DNA from: Salarias fasciatus
Taxonomy: Eukaryota
Length of the DNA stretch: 64,000 nt
Assembly (NCBI RefSeq): GCF_902148845.1
Contig: NC_043762.1
Coordinates: 28,962,760-29,026,759, forward strand
Direction: 5' to 3'
This document shows, piece by piece, positions 2,220-54,143 of this stretch (position 1 is the first letter of the stretch; every line of letters starts with the position of its first letter). A model generated the notes under the pieces. That model did not search any database, had not been told where the DNA came from, and saw only the letters and a list, made by a program, of their open reading frames with translations. Made by a program: the position numbers and the translations under genes.

Positions 2220-3154
2220 CTGGAAGAGGAGATTGATGACTTCAACCAACAAAACAATGATGAAAAGCCAACTCACTTAAATCTTGCAGTAACCTTTGAC
2301 CTGAAGCTTGTTTACACTGAACGTTTGTCCTGATAAAATCATCACAAAGCTGATTTCTACCTCTAAATGCCTCAAAACGAGAAAACAGCAACAGCGTCGC
2401 CCAGTGCCGAATGAGACTGCAACGTGTGTTTGAAATATAAAATCTAATGGGGAAGTCATGGGATTTGAAATTTTAAATTAAGCCAAGCCTTGCAGAATGA
2501 AAGTACGAGATTAAAAATGCACTGATTTGTCTGTAAAAACGAGGGTTTAGTTTATAGCAACAGCCTGAGCAGCAGTGGATTTACTGCTACACAAGAACAA
2601 CTGGAGACCACAGCTGATCCACTCTGAAGACGTTCAGTCAAAGTTAAGGTCTCCCACATTTCATCTGTGGAACATAAATTCCGCCCCCCTAAACAAAAAA
2701 AGAACAGAATAATAGAGGTACTTCCGTTGGCGTCCACTGACGTGTGGCCTCACTGTCATTTGAGAAGGAGCTCATGACCCGTTAGTGAACACACACACAA
2801 AATCCCAGGCTGCTTTTACACTGTTTGAAGACCTTATTCAGACAAAGACATATGTTCTTTAAAATCATGAAGACAAACTGAGAGCAGAGGTTTCAGAGCC
2901 ACTTGTTGTGGGTGAGGGGGGCTGCTGGTGCCCCGGGGGGGTGTTTCTGCCCCGGAGCGCCCTGCAGGGTGACACGGCCGTGGTGACAACATTAGATCTC
3001 TCAGTGATCCTAAATGAACCAGAAATCCACTTGGCTCACACACTGAGAGAGAAGTGTGTGTGTTCGTGGTGGTAAGGTCACACAGAGGGTGTGTGTCCAA
3101 TAATGAAAGTTTCCTCTCAGCCCGAGAGGAAAACAGGAACACGGAGACACTCAC

Positions 3155-6297: not shown

Positions 6298-6879
6298 CCA
6301 CCACGAGCACCTTTGAGAGCAAGAATAATACGTGCAATAAGCAGTTGTTGGGTTGACCAAGTTGACAAAGTTGGACACCAGTGATACTTCCAGCTGATGA
6401 GATTGGGAGGTCACTATGCTTCTCACCTGTGAAACGGCCACTTCACGGCTGTGTGCTTTATTTATTTTTATTTATTTAGTTCTTCTGAACAGAGGTTTTA
6501 CAGTCTCCTCTGGCTGAGGCTCGAGTCACTCGAGTCGAGGCACAGACTGAATTCTGGTGGATGAATTCGCTCATTGGTGGAGGGGCCAATCTGTTTAATA
6601 CTTTGTAAACCAGGCAGGATGATTTGAATAATTTGAAATTTGTGAAGTTTAGAAGGTTATGTTTTTGGAGGATTTGGCAGTGATGATAGGAAAAGGGTTT
6701 TTTGTCTAAAATTTTCAATGCCCACTTGTAGCAAGATTCAACTGGTCTAATGACAGACTGAGCAGCATAAGACCAGCTGGTGATACAGTACTCAATATGT
6801 GCTCTAATATGTTTAAAATTGCGTATATTATAATTTAAAATTTTTACTACTTTGTGAGCATGTTTTTGAAAATGGTAAA

Positions 6880-18920: not shown

Positions 18921-19983
18921 CTGTCCAGAAAGGGGATAATATGGTTTTAAAAATGAGTCTGACATGACAAAAGACAGCTGAAGAGGAAACTGTGCTCATC
19001 TGGCTGTGCTGCAACTGAACAATGTGCATCTGCATATCTACACTTGTGAGACTTTTATTCAGATTGAAAAACTAGATGGAAGCTGAAGTTAAAGGGGCTG
19101 TATCATGCAAAATTCACTTTTTGTATGTTTTAACCTTGTTATATAGTTATGTACTCACCAAAAACACCCCCAAAGCGTTTTTTTCCTTCGTGCCTGCGTG
19201 TTTGAGCTTTCCTCATGTTTGTGCTGCTCAGAGAGGCAGCCCCTCCCGCACCCGTGAAAACGCTCTGTTTTCCCACGTTCACGTCACACGGTGAAGATGG
19301 CTCCCCTGAGCCCCCCTCCCGCAGGCCCTCGGCAATCAGCGTTGCTGCTTTTTGTCACTCCGATTACGGAGATAAAGTTTAACCATCGTCTGAAAGCAAC
19401 AATCAAGCAAAAGCAGGAGTCTGAAGAGTCTGCGCTTGGTGAGTTTCTAACAGGAAAAGAAGTTTTCGCGTGTAGAGAAGCTAGAGCTAAAGAGCTAAAG
19501 CTAGCTAGCGTATTTGTTTTGAAGCGCTGATTGGTTGAAGTACGCTGTCAGTCAAAGTCCACAGGGGGAGAGGCGGGATTTCAGTGAAACAGAGCGTTTT
19601 CTCTTCCAGGTTTCAGAATTAGCCCCAGAAAATCTTTTATTTCACACAAAATTACTTTTCCTTAGCGCCAAAAATAAACTATTACCATGTTAGAGCCATT
19701 TCTAGGGTTTGGACTAGCTAAAAAAGCATGATACAGCCCCTTTAAGTTCTGTAACTGTCTGCTTTTCATCATCTTAAAAATTTTATTGTGTGTGTGTCAT
19801 TTCTGTCATCCTTTTATTTCAAGTCTATTTTCCCCCATTGTAATGTTCTCACATCCTCCGGTCCCCCTTTAAAAAAGGGGAACCACCACCCCAGTCTGCC
19901 AATCCAGAGGCACTGTCCCTGACCGCCACGCGATGTTGCATAGACGTGTCAACCAAGACAGTCCCTGAACATCCGGAGACTTA

Positions 19984-20509
19984 AAGCTGGGGTTGGCGAT
20001 CTTGGAAAACTAGCATGTAGCACGAATGTAGCATCTCCCCAAGGCTCCGCCCAGCTCCCACCCCATTGGAGGAGCTCCGTTGGGAGCGGAGACGCGGAGA
20101 CGTGCGCGCGGTGCGCGCAGCGCTTCCGCGTCCAGTGCGTTCCTGGCGTAACCTGTCCTCAGCGCTTCGTTTCTTCGTTTTTCTTTATTTGGACTACTCC
20201 AAGTTATGGCGCACTTCTCCGCCATTCTGCAACGACGCTCCGTCCTTCTACGCGCGCACTGAACCAGCACGCCATTGACATGTACGCGCAGGGGGCAGGT
20301 CGAACGGCGAAGGGATTTGATTGGTTTAAAAAAAGGTGTCCCGTCAAGACGATTGGTTGCTGTTTTCCCCGTTTTACTCCTGCTGTAGATAGCGGATATT
20401 TTCCAAACTACTTTAAGAACACGCCATGAATTGCTTCCTATCGGGTCATAAAGATCATTTTAACCAGTATTTAAAAAAATGTATCTCATTCAAATCGCCA
20501 ACCCTAGCT
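19984..20509. mobile_element. 526-bp MITE with 19-21 bp terminal inverted repeats and a TTAA target-site duplication (piggyBac-like target choice), inserted in the RT region of LINE copy 1
   Basis: Left end agctggggttggcgatcttgg; right end reverse-complements to agctagggttggcgatttg. TTAA is present at 19980-83 and 20510-13. Removing the element rejoins the LINE frame as ..GVDEIGPEYLK|SPDVQGLSWLTRLCN... No internal ORF. Confidence 0.55.
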
Positions 20510-22586
20510 TTAAGGTACTCAGGGCCAATCTCATCCACCCCCGGTGCCTTGCCACCGAGGAGCTTACCGACCACCTCGGTGACTTCAGCTTGGGTGATGG
20601 ACGAGTCCACCTCTGAGACCTCAGTCCACCTCTGAGACCTCAGCCTCTGCTTCCTCCACGGAAGACGTGGCGACGGGATTGAGGAGGTACTCGAAGTATT
20701 CCTTCCACCGTCCAACAATATCCCCAGTTGAGGTCAGCAGCTCCTCCTCCACTGTAAACAGTGTTAGTAGAGACCTGCTTTCCCCTCCTGAGGCGCCGGA
20801 CGGTTTGCCAGAATTTCTTTGAGGCTGACCAATAGTCCTTCTCCATGGCCTCCTGAACTCCTCCCAGATCCGAGTTTTTGCCTCCACAACCGCTCGAGCT
20901 GCAGTTCGCTTGGCCTGCCGGTACCTGTCAGCTGCTTCCGGAGTCCCATGAGCCAACAAGGCTCGATAGGACTCCTTTTTCACCTTGACAGCAGCCCTGA
21001 CTTCCGGTGTCCATCACCGGGTTCAGGGGTTACCGCCACGACAGGCACCTGTTGAAGTTGAAGTTCCCCAGTAGAACAATGGAGTCCCCAGTCACCCCTC
21101 CCAGAGACTCTAAGAAGGCCGGGTACTCAGCACCGCTGTTCAGCCCGTAAGCCGAGACAACAGTGAGGCACCTATTCCCGACCCGAAGGCGCAGAGATGC
21201 GACCCTCTCGTTCACTAGGGAAAACTCCAACACATGGCGGCTGAGCTGTGGGCCTATAAGCAAACCCACACCAGTCCACCGCCTCTCACCACGGGCAATG
21301 CCAGTGAAGGGGAGAGTCCAGCCCTTCTCGAGAGGTTGGGTTCCAGAGCCCTGGCTGTGTTGAGGTGAGCTCGACTATACCTAGCCGGTACCTCTCCAGG
21401 GTTTCCGCCAGACCTTTTCAGTCCGGGTGCCCCGCCCGCGCTAAATTGTGCAGCGCCCGGACAACGGAGAGGAGAAAAAAAAAACAAAACTCTCCGACAG
21501 TCGAACACCGGCAGCGTTAGGCGTTAGCAGTGACACCACACGCCCCCACCCCCCCCCACCGGCCAAACTTTTCTCCTTCAGAAAACACTGCTCCCAACCA
21601 CCCTCAAAAGGTCAGGCTCCTTTCCCCCCCAACGAGGATGTGCTCCAACTATAGGGGAATCACACTCCTCAGCCTCCCTGGGAAAGTCTACTCCAGGATA
21701 CTGGAGAGGAGGATTCGACCGATAGTCAAACCTCGGATTCAGGAGGAACAATGCGGTTTTCGTCCTGGTCGCCGAACACTGGACCAGCTCTAGACCCTAC
21801 ATAGGGTGCTCAAGGGTTCTTGGGAGTGCGCCTGACCAGTTCACATGTGTTTTGTGGACTTGGAAAAGGCGTTTGACCGCGTCTCTCGTGGTGTCTTGTG
21901 GGGGGTGCTTCAGGAATATGGAGTCCGGGGCCCCTTGTTAAGGGCCGTTTGGTCTCTGTATGACTGGAGTAGGAGTCTGGTCCACTTTGCCGGCAGTAAG
22001 TCGGGCCTGTTCCCGGTGCATATTGGACTCTGGCAGGGCTGCCCTTTGTCACCGGTTCTGTTCGTCATTTTTATGGACAGAATTTCTAGGTGCAGCCAGG
22101 GGCCGGAGGGGGTCCGGTTCAGGGACCACAGGATTTCATCTTTGCTTTTTGCCAATAATGTTATCCTGTTAAATTTATCATACCTGGACCTGCAGCATGC
22201 ACTGGGGAGGTTCACAGCCATATGTGAAGCGACAGGGATGAGGACCAGCACCTCCAAATCTGAGGCCATGGTCCTCGACCAGAAGAAGGTAGTTTGCCCT
22301 TTCCAGGTTGGTGGAGAGACTGCGGCTGTGGTGATGCAGTCGTTGTATCGGTCCATTGTGGTGAAGAAGGAGCTGAGCCGAAAGGCGAAGCTCTGGATTT
22401 ACTGGTCAATCTACGTTCCCACCCTCATCTATGGTCATGAGCTTTGGGTCATGACTGAAAGGACAAGATCCCGGATACAAGCGGCTGAAATGATCTTCCT
22501 CCGTCGGGTGGCTGGGCTCCCTTAGAGACAGGGGGAGGAGCTCAGTCACCAGGGAGGAGCTCGGAGTGCGCCGCAGCCGCATCGTG

Positions 22587-22588
<2 letters not shown>

Positions 22589-22619
<31 letters not shown>
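22589..22619 (+). repeat. Poly(A) tract of 31 nt inside the 3' region of LINE copy 1
   Basis: A31 follows ...cgcatcgtgatt and precedes the poly(C)-containing segment. Confidence 0.9.
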
Positions 22620-22623
<4 letters not shown>

Positions 22624-22688
22624 CTTTTGGCCGAGTTGGTAAGCAGCTTACAGTCAAGTTGGCACCGACCAACTCGGCCACTTGAGAG

Positions 22689-22724
<36 letters not shown>

Positions 22725-22733
22725 CGAGGCCGA
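22689..22733 (+). repeat. Poly(C) homopolymer of about 45 nt (poly(G) on the minus strand)
   Basis: Uninterrupted C run. It sits inside a structured segment, 22620-22830, that has palindromic ggccgagttgg/ccaactcggcc arms and duplicated gccgacttgactgtatccc motifs. Confidence 0.9.
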
Positions 22734-23189
22734 CTTGGCTTTGATGCCGACTTGACTGTATCCCAGAGGCGGTGCCGAGTTGGCCAGGGCCGACTTGGAT
22801 TGGTGCCGACCTGACTGTATCCCCCGGACAAGCGGTAGAAAATGGATGGAAGGATGAATGTAATGTTCTCCTCACCAGTCAGCATGAAAATAGTCATGAA
22901 CTGACTCCAAGTCGTTGAACTGTGCAGCCCGAGCAGGACGAGAAGCATTTAATCCTGCTCATGATTAAACATAACTACACATGCTTGGAGCTCTGTTCTT
23001 TCAGTTTAAATAATCACTTAGTGTACCTTTTAAAATGTAGTTTTTCCACTCTTATCTTGAATTTTCACTTTGGTTTTTCATCCTTTTTGCCTTATCTCTA
23101 TTCAATCTACTTGTCAGCCACTAAAAAAGATCCCAACCTGCACGGGAAGTGTCACATGAACACAGTTTGGATGATCAGCTGATCTGTAC

Positions 23190-40572: not shown

Positions 40573-40769
40573 CTGAGAACGGAGAAAACAAAAAGACAGA
40601 CATGGTTGGTTCAGTCTCAGCATCTTCCTCTAAGTTTCACATTAATGAAATTCAACATTTAAGTGTGAGGATGACATCTTGGATTTGAAGACACACTGCC
40701 TCAGCCACAAGAACACAATAAACTGCTCTAAACTGAACCACAGTTGATTAGACCTTTTCATACCGACCC

Positions 40770-43700
40770 CTGACCTGCCACCTTAAAGTGGTGGGGGAGT
40801 TTGAGCGCCTACGTGATCCCAGGTGCTATGTTGTCCGGGGCTTTATGCCCCTGGTAGGGCCTCCCATGACAGACAGGTCCTGGGTGATGGGCCAGACCAA
40901 GGGCAGGTCGACAGCCCTTATGAAAACATTAAAATCTAGGTCTGTGACGTCGCCCGGTATGGCGCAGCCGGGGCCCCACCCTGGAGCCAGGCCTGGGGTT
41001 GGGGCTCGCAAGCAAGCGCCTGGTGGCCGGGCTCAGCCCGAAAGGGCGATGTGGGCCAACCCTCCGGAGGACCCACCACTTACCGAGGGAACCGTAGGGG
41101 CTGGGTGCAGTGTGGACTGGGTGGCAGCCAACGGCAGGGTTCCCAGCAACCCGATCCTCAGACACAGACACCAGCTCTATGGACGTGGAATGTCACCTCA
41201 CTGTGGGCGGAGTAGCCTGAGCTTGTGAGTGAGGTTGAGAGGTACCGGCTAGATGTAGTAGGGCTCACCTCCACACACAGCCGGGGCTCTGGAACACAAT
41301 TCCTCGAGAAGGGCTGGACACTCCACTGCTCTGGAGTTGCCCGTGGTGAGAGGCGGCGGGCTGGTGTGGGTTTGCTTACAGCCCCACAGCTCAGCCGCCA
41401 TGTGTTGGAGTTCACCCCAGTGAAAGAGAGGGTCGCATCCCTGGTCCTTCGGGTCGGGGACAGGTGCCTCACTGTTGTCTCGGCTTACGGGCCAAACAGC
41501 AGTGCTGAGTACCCGGCCTTCTTGGAGTCCCTGGGAGGGGTGCTGGACAGTGCTCCATCTGGGGACTCCATTGTTCTACTGGGGGACTTCAACGCCCACG
41601 TGGGCAGAGACAGTGAGACCTGGAAGGGGGTGATTGGATCGCATGGCCTCCCTGATCTGAACCCCAGTGGTGTTCTGTTACTGGACTTCTCTGCTGGCCA
41701 CAGTTTGTCCATAATAAACACCATGTTGGAGCACAGGGGGGTCCATAAGTGCACTTGGCACCAGGGCATCCTAGGTCGGAGATCGATGATCGACTTTGTT
41801 GTCGTGTCATCTGACCTCTGACCTCATGATGGGTGCAGAGAGGAGCAGAGCTGTGGACCGATCACCACCTGGTGGTGAGTTGGATTCGCTGGCGGAGGAG
41901 GAAACCGGACAGACTTGGCAGACCCAAAAGTATTGTGAGGGTCTGCTGGGAACGTCTGGTGGAACCCTCTGTCAGCAGGGTTTTCAACTCCCACCTCCGG
42001 GAGAGCTTCTCTCATGTCCCGAGGGACGCTGGGGACATTGACTGCCCATGCACACTGGATGCGGTCCGCCAGCGTTCCAGCTGCAGTCCGGCTCCGGCCC
42101 GGTACACCGCAGCACTGTGATTCACACCGCCTGCGGTGTCTCTGCAGTCCGCTGGAGAAGGTTGCCAGATCTGTCGTTATCCCCCGTAGACCATTTGAAA
42201 CCAGTTTAACTCAATAGAAAGCAGCCCAAACCTCCATCTCGGATGAAAATGCACGTTAAAACCGTATTTGTATGATAAAAAACACGTCATAAACACATAA
42301 TCATTTCATCAACCCGTCCGACGTGTTCAAAAAAGATGCTTGATTTGGTACAAACCTGCCCAATCTGGCAGCACGGAGCTGCTCCGGTCACAGAGCTGTT
42401 TTTAGCCATTTTGGAGTCATTTGACTTTTCAGCAGTGACTAAGTACAAAACCGTTCATTCTTCCAATCCGTATAATGACTACATTACATTGTTGTTCTGT
42501 ATTCCACCAGAAGAAGTAAAAAAATAGAAAATTAAGGCGAAAACACGACACAGATTTTATTTTGAGGTCACTTATTTTGGAACACGTAGTGCGTTTCCTT
42601 CCGGCACCCGACTTGCTTCCGTCTGAATTGACGCGTTAGGCCTGCGGCATCCGGAAAAATAGGATCCTTGCGGAAAGATACCGGAGCTCCACAGAGGCTC
42701 CGGAGCCGGACCGCAGCCGGACTGCAGCCGGACTGCGGCCGGTGTGAACCACAGCATTGATTTTAATGACTACGGATTAGCTGCGGTGTCCGGACCGCAT
42801 CCAGTGTGCATCGGGGGTGAGTCCGACTGGACCATGTTCTCTACCTCCATTGTCGAAGCAGTTGCCCGGCGCTATGGTCGTAAGGTCTCCGGTGCCTGTC
42901 GTGGCGGCAACCCCCAAATCCGGTGGTGGACACCGGAAGTAAGGGCTGCCGTCAAGAAGGAGTCCTATCGAGTCTTGTTGGCTCTTGGGACTCCCGAAGC
43001 AGCTGACAGGTACTAGCAGGCCAAGCAAACTTTAGCCCAAGTGGTTGTGGAGGGAAAAACTCAGGTCTGGGAGGAGTTCAGGAGGCCGTGGAGGAGGACT
43101 ACCGGTCGACCTCGAAGAAATTCTGGCAAACCGTCCGGCGCCTCAGGAGGGGAAAGCAGGTCTCCACCAACACTGTTTACAGTGGAGGAGGGGAGCTGCT
43201 GAGGAGCAGGAGTCTGGTCCGCATTGCCGGCAGTAAATCGGACCTGTTCCCGGTGCAGGTTGCACTCCGGCAGGTCTGCCCTTTGTCACTGGTTGTGTTC
43301 ATCATTTTTATGGACAAGGGGGCCATAAAAATGATGGGGGCCGGAGGGGGTCCGGTTTGGGGACCACAGGATTTCATCTTTGCTTTTTGCAGATGATGTT
43401 GTCCTGCTGGCTTCATCGAACCCGGACCTACAGCATGCACTGGGGCGGTTCGCAGCTGAGTGTGAAGCGACAGGGATGAGGATCAGCACCTCCAAATCCA
43501 AGACCATGGTCCTCGACCGGAACAAGGTGGCTTGCCCCTCCAGGTTGGTGGAGAGACTCTGGCCCAAGTGGAGGAGTTTAAGTATCTCGGGGTCTTGTTC
43601 ACGAGTGAGGGACGGATGGAGGTGAGATTGACAGGCGGATCAGTGCAGCATCTGCCGTCATGCAGTTGTTGTATCGGTCCGTTGTGGTGAAGAAGGAGCT

Positions 43701-44175
43701 GAGGTGAAGCTCTTGATTTACAGGCCAATCTACGTTCCCACCCTCACCTATGGTCATGAGCTTTGGGTCATGACCGAAAGGACAAGATCCCGGATACAAG
43801 CAGCTTAAATGAGCTTCCTCCGGAGGGGGGCTGGGCTCCCTCAGAGACAGGGTGAGGAGCTCAGTCACCTCCACATCGAGAGGAGCCAGCTGAGGTGGCT
43901 CGGGCACCTCTTTAGGATGCCTCCTGGACTCCTCCCTGGGGAGGTTTACCGGGCATGTCCCACTGGGAGGAGACCCCGGGGAAGACCCAGGACATGATGG
44001 AGAGACTATGTCTCTTGGCTGGCCTGGGAACGCCTTGGGATCCTCCCAGAGGAGCTGGAGGAAGAGTCTGGGGACAGGGAAGTCTGGGCATCTCTGCTGA
44101 GACTGCTGCCCCCGCGACCCGGCCCCGGATAAGTGGTGGAAGATTGATGGATGGATGGATGGATTGACGGATATC
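40770..44175 (+). mobile_element. Copy 2 of the same retrotransposon family (about 430-bp 5'UTR, EN, RT, (TGGA)n tail) in a TEP1 intron; carries an internal deletion and a foreign insertion
   Basis: EN ORF 41225-41821 ([23 protein letters not shown]...[10 protein letters not shown]...). RT pieces 43088-43800. The sequence of this copy's 3' end (about 43820-44000) translates to ...FLRRGAGLPQRQGEELSHLHIERSQLRWLGHLFRMPPG..., followed by gatggatggatggatggattgacgg at 44140-44165. Confidence 0.65.
42120..42745. mobile_element. About 620-bp insertion bounded by imperfect inverted repeats inside LINE copy 2 (MITE-like, or an inverted duplication of adjacent LINE sequence)
   Basis: gcagcactgtgattcacaccgcctgcggtgtc (42113-42144) opposes ccggtgtgaaccacagcattg (42738-42758). 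The ctgcagtccggctccgg motif recurs in inverted orientation (42700-42735). The LINE ORF resumes at 42744. Confidence 0.35.
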
Positions 44176-52199: not shown

Positions 52200-54143
52200 A
52201 AATCAAGAGATAATAATAATAATAATAATGAATTTTATTTATCATGCACTTTACATTTGTAAAACAAATCTCAAAGTGCTACAATGGAATTTAAAAACAA
52301 CAGTGACAATTAAAAGTAACAGATACAGGCTAAATCAATAAAAAACTCTCATACTTTTGCACGTCATAAAATACAACAAAGTACAGTAAAATCATTCAAA
52401 CGCTTTCACAAACAAAAACATTTTTAAGCAAGATTTAAATAAGTCCACCGACTGTGGTGCCCTCAGGTGGGCAGGTAGGGCATTCCACAGTCGGGGTGCT
52501 GCAGCCTGAAAAGCCCTGTCCCCCATGGAACACAGTTTGGTTTTGGGGACCTTTAGCAAGTTGATGTCGGCGGAGCGGAGGCGTCTGGTCGGGTCGTGTG
52601 GGGAGAGAAGTTCTTTTAGGTACACTGGTGCACTACCATAGACACACTGATGGGTCAGGAGGCAGATTTTGTATTCCAGCCTGAACCTTATCGGGAGCCA
52701 GTGAAGGTTATGGAGAATGGGAGTGATATGGTGTCTTTTTGGCACCCTCATCAGGATCCTGGCAGCACAGTTCTGGATCGACTGAAGCCGTTGTAGGCTT
52801 CTTCCAGAGATCCCGATGAGGAGTGCATTGCAGTAGTCCAGCCTGGAGGAGACAAAAGCATGGACCAGCTTCTCAGCAACGGGGAGGGAGAGGACGGGGC
52901 GTAGTTTGGAGATGTTCCGGAGGTGAAAAAATGAGGTCTTACAGATGTGTTGGATATGGAGGTCAAAGGAGAGGGTGGGGTCAAAGCGGACACCCAGGTT
53001 GGTAACGGCAGTTGTTGGGTTGATTTTGTGGCTGGCAAATGATAGGACTGTGAAAGGGGAGGACTTAAGTTGATGTGGAGTTCCAATTAATAGAAATTCA
53101 GTTTTGGAGCTGTTGAGCTGGAGAAAATTGTCATTCATCCATGCTTTAGTCTCCTCCAGGCAGGCGGTGAGTGATTGGATAGCAAGGGAGGAGGTCCGGT
53201 CCAGCCTGACATAGAGCTGAGTATCATCAGCATAGCAATGGTAGGAGACTCCATGCCTGCTGATGGTGTGGCCCAAAGGGAGCATGTAGATGGAGAACAG
53301 GCTAGGCCCCAGCACTGACCCCTGGGGAACCCCACAGGTGACAGCGTCGGACCTCGACCTGGCTTCCCCAAGGGCGACTTACTCAGCCCGACCAGTCAGG
53401 TAGGACCGGAACCACTGGAGCACTGTATCTGAAAGACCAATGAAATGCTGGAGTCTGTGGAGGAGGATGGAGTGGTCAACAGTGTCGAAGGCGGCTTAGA
53501 GGTCCAGGAGTAACAGGAGTGATGGAGAGCCCTGGTCAGAGGCCACCAGCAAATCGTTGGTGACCCTGACCAGAGCTGTCTCAGTGCTGTGAGCTGAACG
53601 GAAACCGGATTGGAATTTGTCGTACAGATGGGAGGACTGGAGATGTGTGTGAATTTGAGAGGAGACTACCTTTTCAATGATTTTTGACAGGAAGGGAAGA
53701 TTGGAAATGGGCCAGTAATTAGATGTTTTTTCAGGGTCAAGGGAGGGTTTTTTGAGAAGTGGTTTAATTATTGCATTTTTCAATGACTGTGGCAGGTGAC
53801 CGTGTTGCAGGGAGTGATTGATGATAGTTGTGATTAGGGGGCTCAGTGTGGAAACATGGGATTTGATCAGGGATGTGGGAAGTGGATCCAGGTGACAGGT
53901 GGAGGGCCTCATCTTGCGGATGACGTCCTCCACCTGTCTGTCTGTGACAGGGAAAAACTGGGAAAATTTGGAAGCTGGAGTGGCAGGTGTGGAGTTAGGA
54001 GAACTAGAGGGCAGGAGAGCAGAACGAATGTTATCAATCTTGGATATGAATGTATCCAAGAATGCATCACATTGTTCGTTATTGTTTGTTTTTTGTGTAA
54101 GTGGTTGTGGTGCGAGAAGTTTGTTTACAGTTTTAAAACTCAA
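52200..54143 (-). mobile_element. Second copy of the L2/CR1-like LINE (RT region), in a TEP1 intron, with a (TAA)n tail
   Basis: Minus ORFs 53496-54143 (...[23 protein letters not shown]...LLLLLDL) and 52392-53315 (...[14 protein letters not shown]...[10 protein letters not shown]...). (TAA)7 at 52213-52232. Confidence 0.65.

Follow-up and report, generated by a model that had tools for sequence, protein, structure and literature searches.

A 5'-inverted Rex3 retrotransposon in Salarias fasciatus with the structure of a twin-priming insertion

How does a single retrotransposon copy come to carry its 5' portion on one strand and its 3' portion on the other? The question is posed by a locus of the teleost Salarias fasciatus (NCBI RefSeq assembly GCF_902148845.1, contig NC_043762.1), where two pieces of the long interspersed element (LINE) Rex3 lie head to head at positions 19839-22870 of a 64,000-nucleotide stretch (contig positions 28,962,760 to 29,026,759, forward strand; this whole stretch is the window in what follows, and positions are counted from its first letter). 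Twin priming, which an initial annotation of the window had proposed for this arrangement, is a textbook mechanism for L1, and Ostertag and Kazazian reportedly put forward the model in 2001 for 5'-inverted L1 copies. To our knowledge, it has seldom been documented outside L1. We conclude, with a probability of roughly 85%, that the composite is the product of a single twin-priming insertion event of one Rex3 RNA, now present as an old and decayed copy.

An inverted and a direct arm within one target-site duplication

The composite was mapped by blastn against three DNA references, from Scortum barcoo (L001), Hemibagrus guttatus (L002) and Acanthopagrus schlegelii (L003), and by tblastn with a 965-aa composite Rex3 family protein built from overlapping database matches. 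Both approaches, with all three DNA references, bear out the two blocks of the initial annotation, namely a minus-strand LINE block that starts in the endonuclease (EN) region and reaches ...LDWQTGVVVPLFKGDRRM at 19851, and a plus-strand block that opens with (R)MCSNYRGITLL and closes with a GATG-like tail at 22858.

From its outer end inwards, the inverted arm begins with a minus-strand segment at 19851..19984 that encodes ...SWLTRLCNIAWRSGTVPLDWQTGVVVPLFKGDRRM and ends at L001 5061/5062 (window 19850-19982 corresponds to L001 5062->4929, and the same segment to L002 15799->15664 and L003 11612->11479). After a nested transposon follows the linker between EN and reverse transcriptase (RT) at 20510..21049 (reference residues 320-496; 20506-21049 = L001 4934->4402), and then the N-terminal half of the apurinic-type endonuclease at 21057..21396 (L001 3863->3492; 41593->41237 of a second Rex3 copy in the window, hereafter copy 2). 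Past an unrelated insertion, the innermost segment, 21591..21637 (L001 3496->3451), is the reverse complement of the EN N-terminus (..GGKEPDLLRVVG..) and ends at L001 3451-3455. The minus-strand tblastn matches run correspondingly from residues 36-155 (21368-21033) through 320-449 (21052-20666) and 457-496 (20625-20506) to 488-534 (20003-19863). At its inner end the arm stops ~360-425 nt short of the 5' end of the element and is thus 5'-truncated; at its outer end it has no 3' tail and terminates within the start of RT at 19851.

The direct arm covers the RT domain onward (21638..22588, plus strand, MCSNYRGITLL... to ...REELG; 21639-22318 = L001 5059->5744 and 22331-22577 = L001 5847->6111). 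Residues 537-860 of the reference protein match 21635-22516 with 76% identity, and the Pfam RVT_1 domain is matched from its residue 2 onward (E=6.8e-25). A foreign segment at 22589..22822 takes the place of ~254 bp of the element (L001 6112-6365), after which the authentic Rex3 3' end and a short degenerate GATG-type tail (CCGGACAAGCGGTAGAAAATGGATGGAAGGATGAA, 22823..22858) lead up to the right-hand target-site duplication. Compared by eye, 22823-22858 matches the 3' terminus of copy 2 (ccccggataagtggtggaagattgatggatgg...).

All three references put the outer limit of the inverted arm (19851) and the beginning of the direct arm (21634-21638) at the same element position, as the initial annotation had held from the translations; the coordinates are 5061/5062 versus 5054/5058 in L001, 15799 versus 15791 in L002 and 11612 versus 11604 in L003. 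This position is the motif PLFKKGDRRMCSNYRG, the first positions of the RVT_1 domain. At the outer boundary the inverted arm ends ...GACCGGAGGATGT(G) at 19851/19850, and the element sequence present in both arms comes to between 4 nt (ATGT) and 9 nt (GAGGATGTG), 100% identical, at the first residues of the RT domain. L002 and L003, whose high-scoring segment pairs begin at 21634, both agree with the 9-nt figure. At the inversion junction itself, the inverted arm reads ...CCCCCCCAACGAGG, where the references continue as TGACATTCC, and the direct arm begins GAGGATGTGCTCC..., which in the element is preceded by ...GGACCG. Alignment to L001 in both orientations shows a direct join with 4 nt of microhomology, GAGG at 21634..21637, common to the end of one arm and the start of the other.

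Two features that had seemed awkward for twin priming, namely an overlap of ~90 bp at ~75% identity and 160 bp of filler at the junction, do not hold up. Local alignment of the inverted-arm end with 21397-21625 scores no better than shuffled sequence, and the 'PNHPQKVRLL' stretch taken for early RT is endonuclease, since the reverse complement of 21591-21637 aligns to the EN N-terminus of L001 (38/47 nt), of L003 and of copy 2, with 0/2000 shuffles reaching its score. Because 21591-21637 is LINE sequence, the unrelated DNA amounts to 194 bp (21397..21590) and interrupts the inverted arm at a distance of 41-46 bp from the junction. Both caveats therefore vanish once this nested insertion is recognised, 21397-21637 having been misread.

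A perfect 12-bp direct repeat, TGTAATGTTCTC, encloses the whole composite, at 19839..19850 next to the inverted arm and at 22859..22870 next to the tail (12/12 identical). The final C of the left copy may equally be the first base of the inverted arm (a microhomology of 1 nt), and the leading TG of the right copy may instead belong to the GATG tail. Of the exact matches between the two boundary windows, TGTAATGTTCTC is the longest; a match of at least 12 nt occurred in 0.16% of 20,000 control pairs of 51-bp windows lying 3 kb apart in the same sequence, wherever in the windows it fell rather than at a boundary. Searches for a duplication around either arm alone gave just 5-8-nt low-complexity matches, and these were misplaced, so that the duplication for which a search near 19845 and 22860 had been suggested exists and is specific to neither block. 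Its length falls within the 10-12 bp mode stated for the RTE clade in PMC6007223 (citing Ichiyanagi and Okada 2008), and within the 10-20 bp spanned by the duplications of 5'-inverted L1 (PMC4245944). As a side observation, a TTTT precedes the duplication, 8-11 nt upstream of its first base (T; window 19828-19839), which resembles the 'T-stretch one helical turn upstream' given as an insertion signature of RTE-related retroposons (PMC6007223); as a single site it is anecdotal.

The enclosing duplication bears directly on whether two Rex3 copies might have inserted independently, side by side and in opposite orientation. Rex3 is abundant in teleosts, nested and adjacent copies are common, and the window itself holds a second copy (40768-44175). 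Two insertions should, however, each have their own duplication, and here one 12-bp repeat encloses both pieces. In addition, every insertion by target-primed reverse transcription (TPRT) keeps its 3' end and tail, and the minus-strand piece has neither; because it ends in mid-element without a 3' tail, the inverted arm cannot be an ordinary independent TPRT insertion. Coordinates abutting within 10 nt of a 3.3-kb element would be a coincidence of ~0.6%, and both pieces carry, within the duplicated 9 nt, the minority variant DRRM, found in 6/98 family proteins. The joined translation of the two arms aligns along its entire length (100%) with intact family proteins (80-87% identity), and the arms have diverged from the references to a similar degree (~81-87% identity for the inverted and 83-85% for the direct arm). 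We regard two separate insertions as effectively excluded.

A single insertion might also have been rearranged afterwards. A 5'-truncated Rex3 inserted normally in plus orientation, with its 5' portion (element ~360 to ~1968) inverted later by a chromosomal rearrangement, would yield the same gross geometry and leave the outer duplication intact, and the locus has been rearranged in other ways (deletions at 21049/21057 and 22318/22331, and the replaced 22589-22822). It is the exact boundaries that make a later inversion unlikely: one breakpoint would have to fall within 0-1 nt of the boundary between element and duplication at 19850/19851, and a cut-and-paste event leaves the 4-9 nt (GAGGATGTG) found at the ends of both arms unaccounted for.

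A twin-priming origin is preferred over both. The composite has one outer duplication, a tailed direct 3' arm, a tail-less and 5'-truncated inverted arm, abutting element coordinates and microhomology at the junction, which is the structure of a twin-priming product. The geometry recognised in the initial annotation is thus supported, with a smaller overlap and a direct join.

Identity of the element

The window is teleost DNA, and the translations of the region match hundreds of fish LINE proteins (from Scortum, Acanthopagrus, Hemibagrus, Sparus, Sphaeramia and others). The element is Rex3, a teleost LINE in which an apurinic-type endonuclease precedes the reverse transcriptase; the Pfam domains Exo_endo_phos, Exo_endo_phos_2 and RVT_1 are all present in the composite family protein, of which the two arms cover residues 36-539 and 537-860. 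Placement of Rex3 in the RTE clade follows the statement in the literature that it is RTE-related (PMC3728117).

The binding sites of both diagnostic Rex3 primers, RTX3-R3 (TGGCAGACNGGGGTGGTGGT) and RTX3-F3 (CGGTGAYAAAGGGCAGCCCTG) (PMC3728117), are present with 0 mismatches each, the former in the outermost segment of the inverted arm (19882-19901) and the latter in the direct arm (22034-22054). In an intact element the primers converge; in the present copy the inversion has put both sites on the minus strand, which displays the rearrangement in compact form. The Rex3 3' tail is described as tandem GATG repeats (PMC3728117), in the form GCG(GAA)2(GATG)n (PMC6274825). The 3' end of the studied copy, GCGGTAGAAAATGGATGGAAGGATGAA, is a short degenerate form of this, with GGATGGAAGGATGAA as its degenerate GATG tail, and copy 2 has clean (GATG)n at 44139-44165.

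L001 is an almost full-length element, ~3.3 kb long between its own flanking repeats. These form a duplication of ~11 bp, (A)GGATTCTTAT, at 3080-3091 and 6411-6422, and the 3' end is a (GATGAA)n-type tail; the copy has 12 stop codons, although its alignment to the family protein stays in a single frame. In fish annotations, Rex3 open reading frames (ORFs) go under misleading names ('craniofacial development protein 2-like', 'receptor-type tyrosine-protein phosphatase F-like' and 'R2DM Retrovirus-related Pol polyprotein from type II retrotransposable element'), and separate gene models cover EN alone (~280-340 aa) and RT alone (~300-560 aa). One Rex3-like database match is labelled as a 'Pseudomonadota bacterium' MAG protein.

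Later changes within the composite and other features of the window

The inverted arm is interrupted by a DNA transposon of 525 bp resembling a miniature inverted-repeat transposable element (MITE) at 19985..20509. It is flanked by a TTAA duplication (19981-19984 and 20510-20513) and bounded by 21-nt terminal inverted repeats, CTTAAAGCTGGGGTTGGCGAT, that are 95% complementary; the Rex3 alignment picks up exactly past it (L001 4929/4934), which marks it as a later arrival. No second copy of this element was found within the window. The linker behind it contains a 19-bp tandem duplication (20604-20643, TRF), and the C-terminal half of EN, ~538 bp of element sequence (L001 3864-4401), has been deleted between 21049 and 21057. 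From the direct arm, ~100 bp are deleted at 22318-22331.

The 194-bp insertion at 21397..21590 breaks the alignment between L001 3492 and 3496. It is flanked by CTCTC (21392-21396) and CTCCC (21591-21595), and its termini, CAGGGTTTCC...GAAAACACTG, are weakly inverted (CAGGGTTTCC / CAGTGTTTTC). It behaves as a later insertion and not as junction filler, and may be the remnant of a small DNA transposon with an unusual 5-bp duplication; no other copy occurs within the window. An origin of 21397-21625 as captured snRNA or tRNA was considered and rejected, there being no notable Rfam match and no tRNA in it, and 21591-21637 subsequently proved to be LINE sequence. The 194-bp insertion also shares an inverted 15-nt match with the arm, one of many of that length and judged to be noise.

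The foreign segment in the direct arm (22589..22822, 234 bp) is of a different kind. It contains an A-run of ~30, which is the A-tract of the initial annotation (22589-22619), a perfect 13-nt hairpin (TGGCCGAGTTGGT/ACCAACTCGGCCA), a C-run of 35, and two direct units of ~60 bp that end in GACTGTATCCC, with an inverted copy of the GACTGTATCCC motif at 22649-22680. It shows no similarity to the three reference copies, has no tRNA or Rfam match and has no further copy in the window, and on these grounds an origin as a short interspersed element (SINE) or other tRNA-derived sequence was rejected. The long homopolymers may reflect problems of sequence quality.

Such homopolymers raise the question of whether the head-to-head structure was made by the assembly, through repeat reads mis-joined in inverted orientation. 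The element's two long homopolymers, ~30 A and 35 C, do hint at locally poor sequence, and it is because of them that we keep the probability of an artefact above zero. We nevertheless consider it very improbable, as a mis-join would not give a perfect outer duplication, a microhomology junction and precisely abutting coordinates, and the arms hold different nested insertions, consistent with a long common history in place. Under the twin-priming reading, the composite would since have decayed through the TTAA-flanked MITE, the 194-bp insertion, three internal deletions, the replaced 3' segment, and many stop codons and frameshifts.

Copy 2 (40768-44175, plus strand) has an apparently full-length 5' leader, the start of which resembles that of Acanthopagrus L003. 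It carries a nested element of ~776 bp (42042-42817) with inverted termini of ~19 nt (GCACACTGGATGCGGTCCG...), and has lost 669 bp of early RT (L001 4723-5391) at 43202/43203. Two further RT-like stretches, at 27227-28219 (plus strand) and 53085-53948 (minus strand), are only 26-29% identical to the Rex3 reference protein and are probably pieces of LINEs from other families.

A candidate host exon (23146-23346, minus strand; acceptor ttgcag|, donor |gtacag or |gttggg) lies ~280 bp away from the composite and encodes a WD40-like motif (HGHSGAV...SEDRSVRMW). A word-indexed protein search returned no homologue of it. Given this candidate, the composite would lie in an intron, with the direct arm antisense to the gene.

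Probable twin priming in an RTE-clade element

The annealing steps of the twin-priming model have been set out for L1 (PMC2912911, PMC4245944), and the present structure can be written in the same terms, with the order of nicking and priming taken by analogy from the L1 model. The endonuclease of the element would have nicked the bottom strand at CAT|TGT, where the GATG-type tail of the RNA would be primed, and synthesis of the first cDNA would have reached back roughly as far as the beginning of the RT domain. The top strand would then have been nicked 12 nt downstream, and its freed 3' end (...GTTCTC) would have annealed inside the same RNA with 1 nt of homology, priming a second cDNA whose synthesis began at the RT start, proceeded toward the 5' end and broke off ~360-425 nt before reaching it. 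Following removal of the RNA, the cDNA ends may have paired via GAGG/CCTC, with fill-in and ligation completing the insertion; the direct GAGG join agrees with the annealing step in the model of PMC2912911. What the sequence itself shows is the order duplication, inverted 5' arm, direct 3' arm with tail, and duplication, with 4-9 nt (GAGGATGTG) in both arms. The empty site before insertion would be expected to read ...CCCCCATTGTAATGTTCTCCTCACCAG..., with one copy of the 12-mer.

Several points weigh against this reading. The internal priming site, which is the 5' junction, has just 1 nt of microhomology (C19850, shared between target overhang and RNA), which is compatible with the model but no better than chance, whereas ~70% of 5'-inverted human L1 copies have 2-5 nt (PMC2912911). 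In cell assays, hardly any 5' inversions were seen other than those of L1 in human cells (PMC4245944), so that twin priming by a non-L1 LINE is not a given. The replaced segment at 22589-22822 means that the locus was rearranged after, and possibly during, insertion. Finally, this is a single old copy, and the mechanism itself is deduced from structure alone.

The likeness to 5'-inverted L1 copies, which have been analysed genome-wide (PMC2912911), is nonetheless extensive. In both cases, a single duplication of 10-20 bp surrounds the composite, the inverted segment is 5'-truncated, the direct segment takes up the element where the outer end of the inverted one leaves off, with a small duplication at the break, and there is microhomology at the inversion junction. 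The element itself differs, Rex3 being an RTE-clade LINE with a single EN+RT ORF and a GATG-repeat tail, where L1 has a poly(A) tail. The setting differs as well, in that the host is a teleost, the internal priming site has 1 nt of microhomology, and the material is one decayed copy and not a population of young insertions.

Closer to the present host, the zebrafish LINEs ZfL2-1 and Nimb-2_DR have been assayed in HeLa and DT40 cells for their 5' junctions (PMC4245944). Nimb-2_DR, with a duplication peak at ~12 bp, gave one 5' inversion, and ZfL2-1, with a 5-bp duplication, gave none; a long 3' overhang, seen as a long target-site duplication, was proposed to be needed for the second priming (PMC4245944). 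The 12-bp duplication of the Rex3 composite fits both this proposal and the Nimb-2_DR inversion. Those assays scored de novo L2 and Nimb insertions, while the insertion studied here occurred naturally in a genome and belongs to an RTE-clade element.

As for Rex3 itself, the summaries of Volff et al. 1999 in PMC3728117 and PMC6274825 describe EN and RT, frequent 5' truncation and short target-site duplications of variable length. The studied copy shares EN and RT, 5' truncation, the GATG tail, a short duplication and exact matches to both diagnostic primers. It differs by its 5' inversion, as the descriptions in these summaries list truncation but not inversion. No report linking twin priming with Rex3 was found in the searchable literature, where RTE and the term co-occur through reference lists alone. 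The composite is therefore a structurally complete natural example, in Rex3, of a known mechanism for which no report was found in the clade; it is one data point and not a discovery, and carries modest weight because it is a single ancient copy.

With that weight, the example shows that an RTE-clade enzyme in a teleost can yield the kind of product known from L1, and supports overhang length, rather than features specific to L1, as what permits the second priming. From the cell assays, 5' inversions seem to depend on both the LINE and the host (PMC4245944). In practice, repeat annotators count copies of this kind as two fragments, and PCR-based Rex3 surveys cannot amplify them because the primer sites lie on the same strand. 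We tentatively entertain, at somewhat less than even odds, the broader idea that twin priming is a regular outcome of Rex3/RTE retrotransposition in teleost germlines and not a peculiarity of L1 or of human cells. If so, a top-strand overhang of 10-12 nt would suffice for the second priming with almost no microhomology, and a measurable share of fish Rex3 copies would be 5'-inverted, mis-scored as two fragments and missed by RTX3 PCR.

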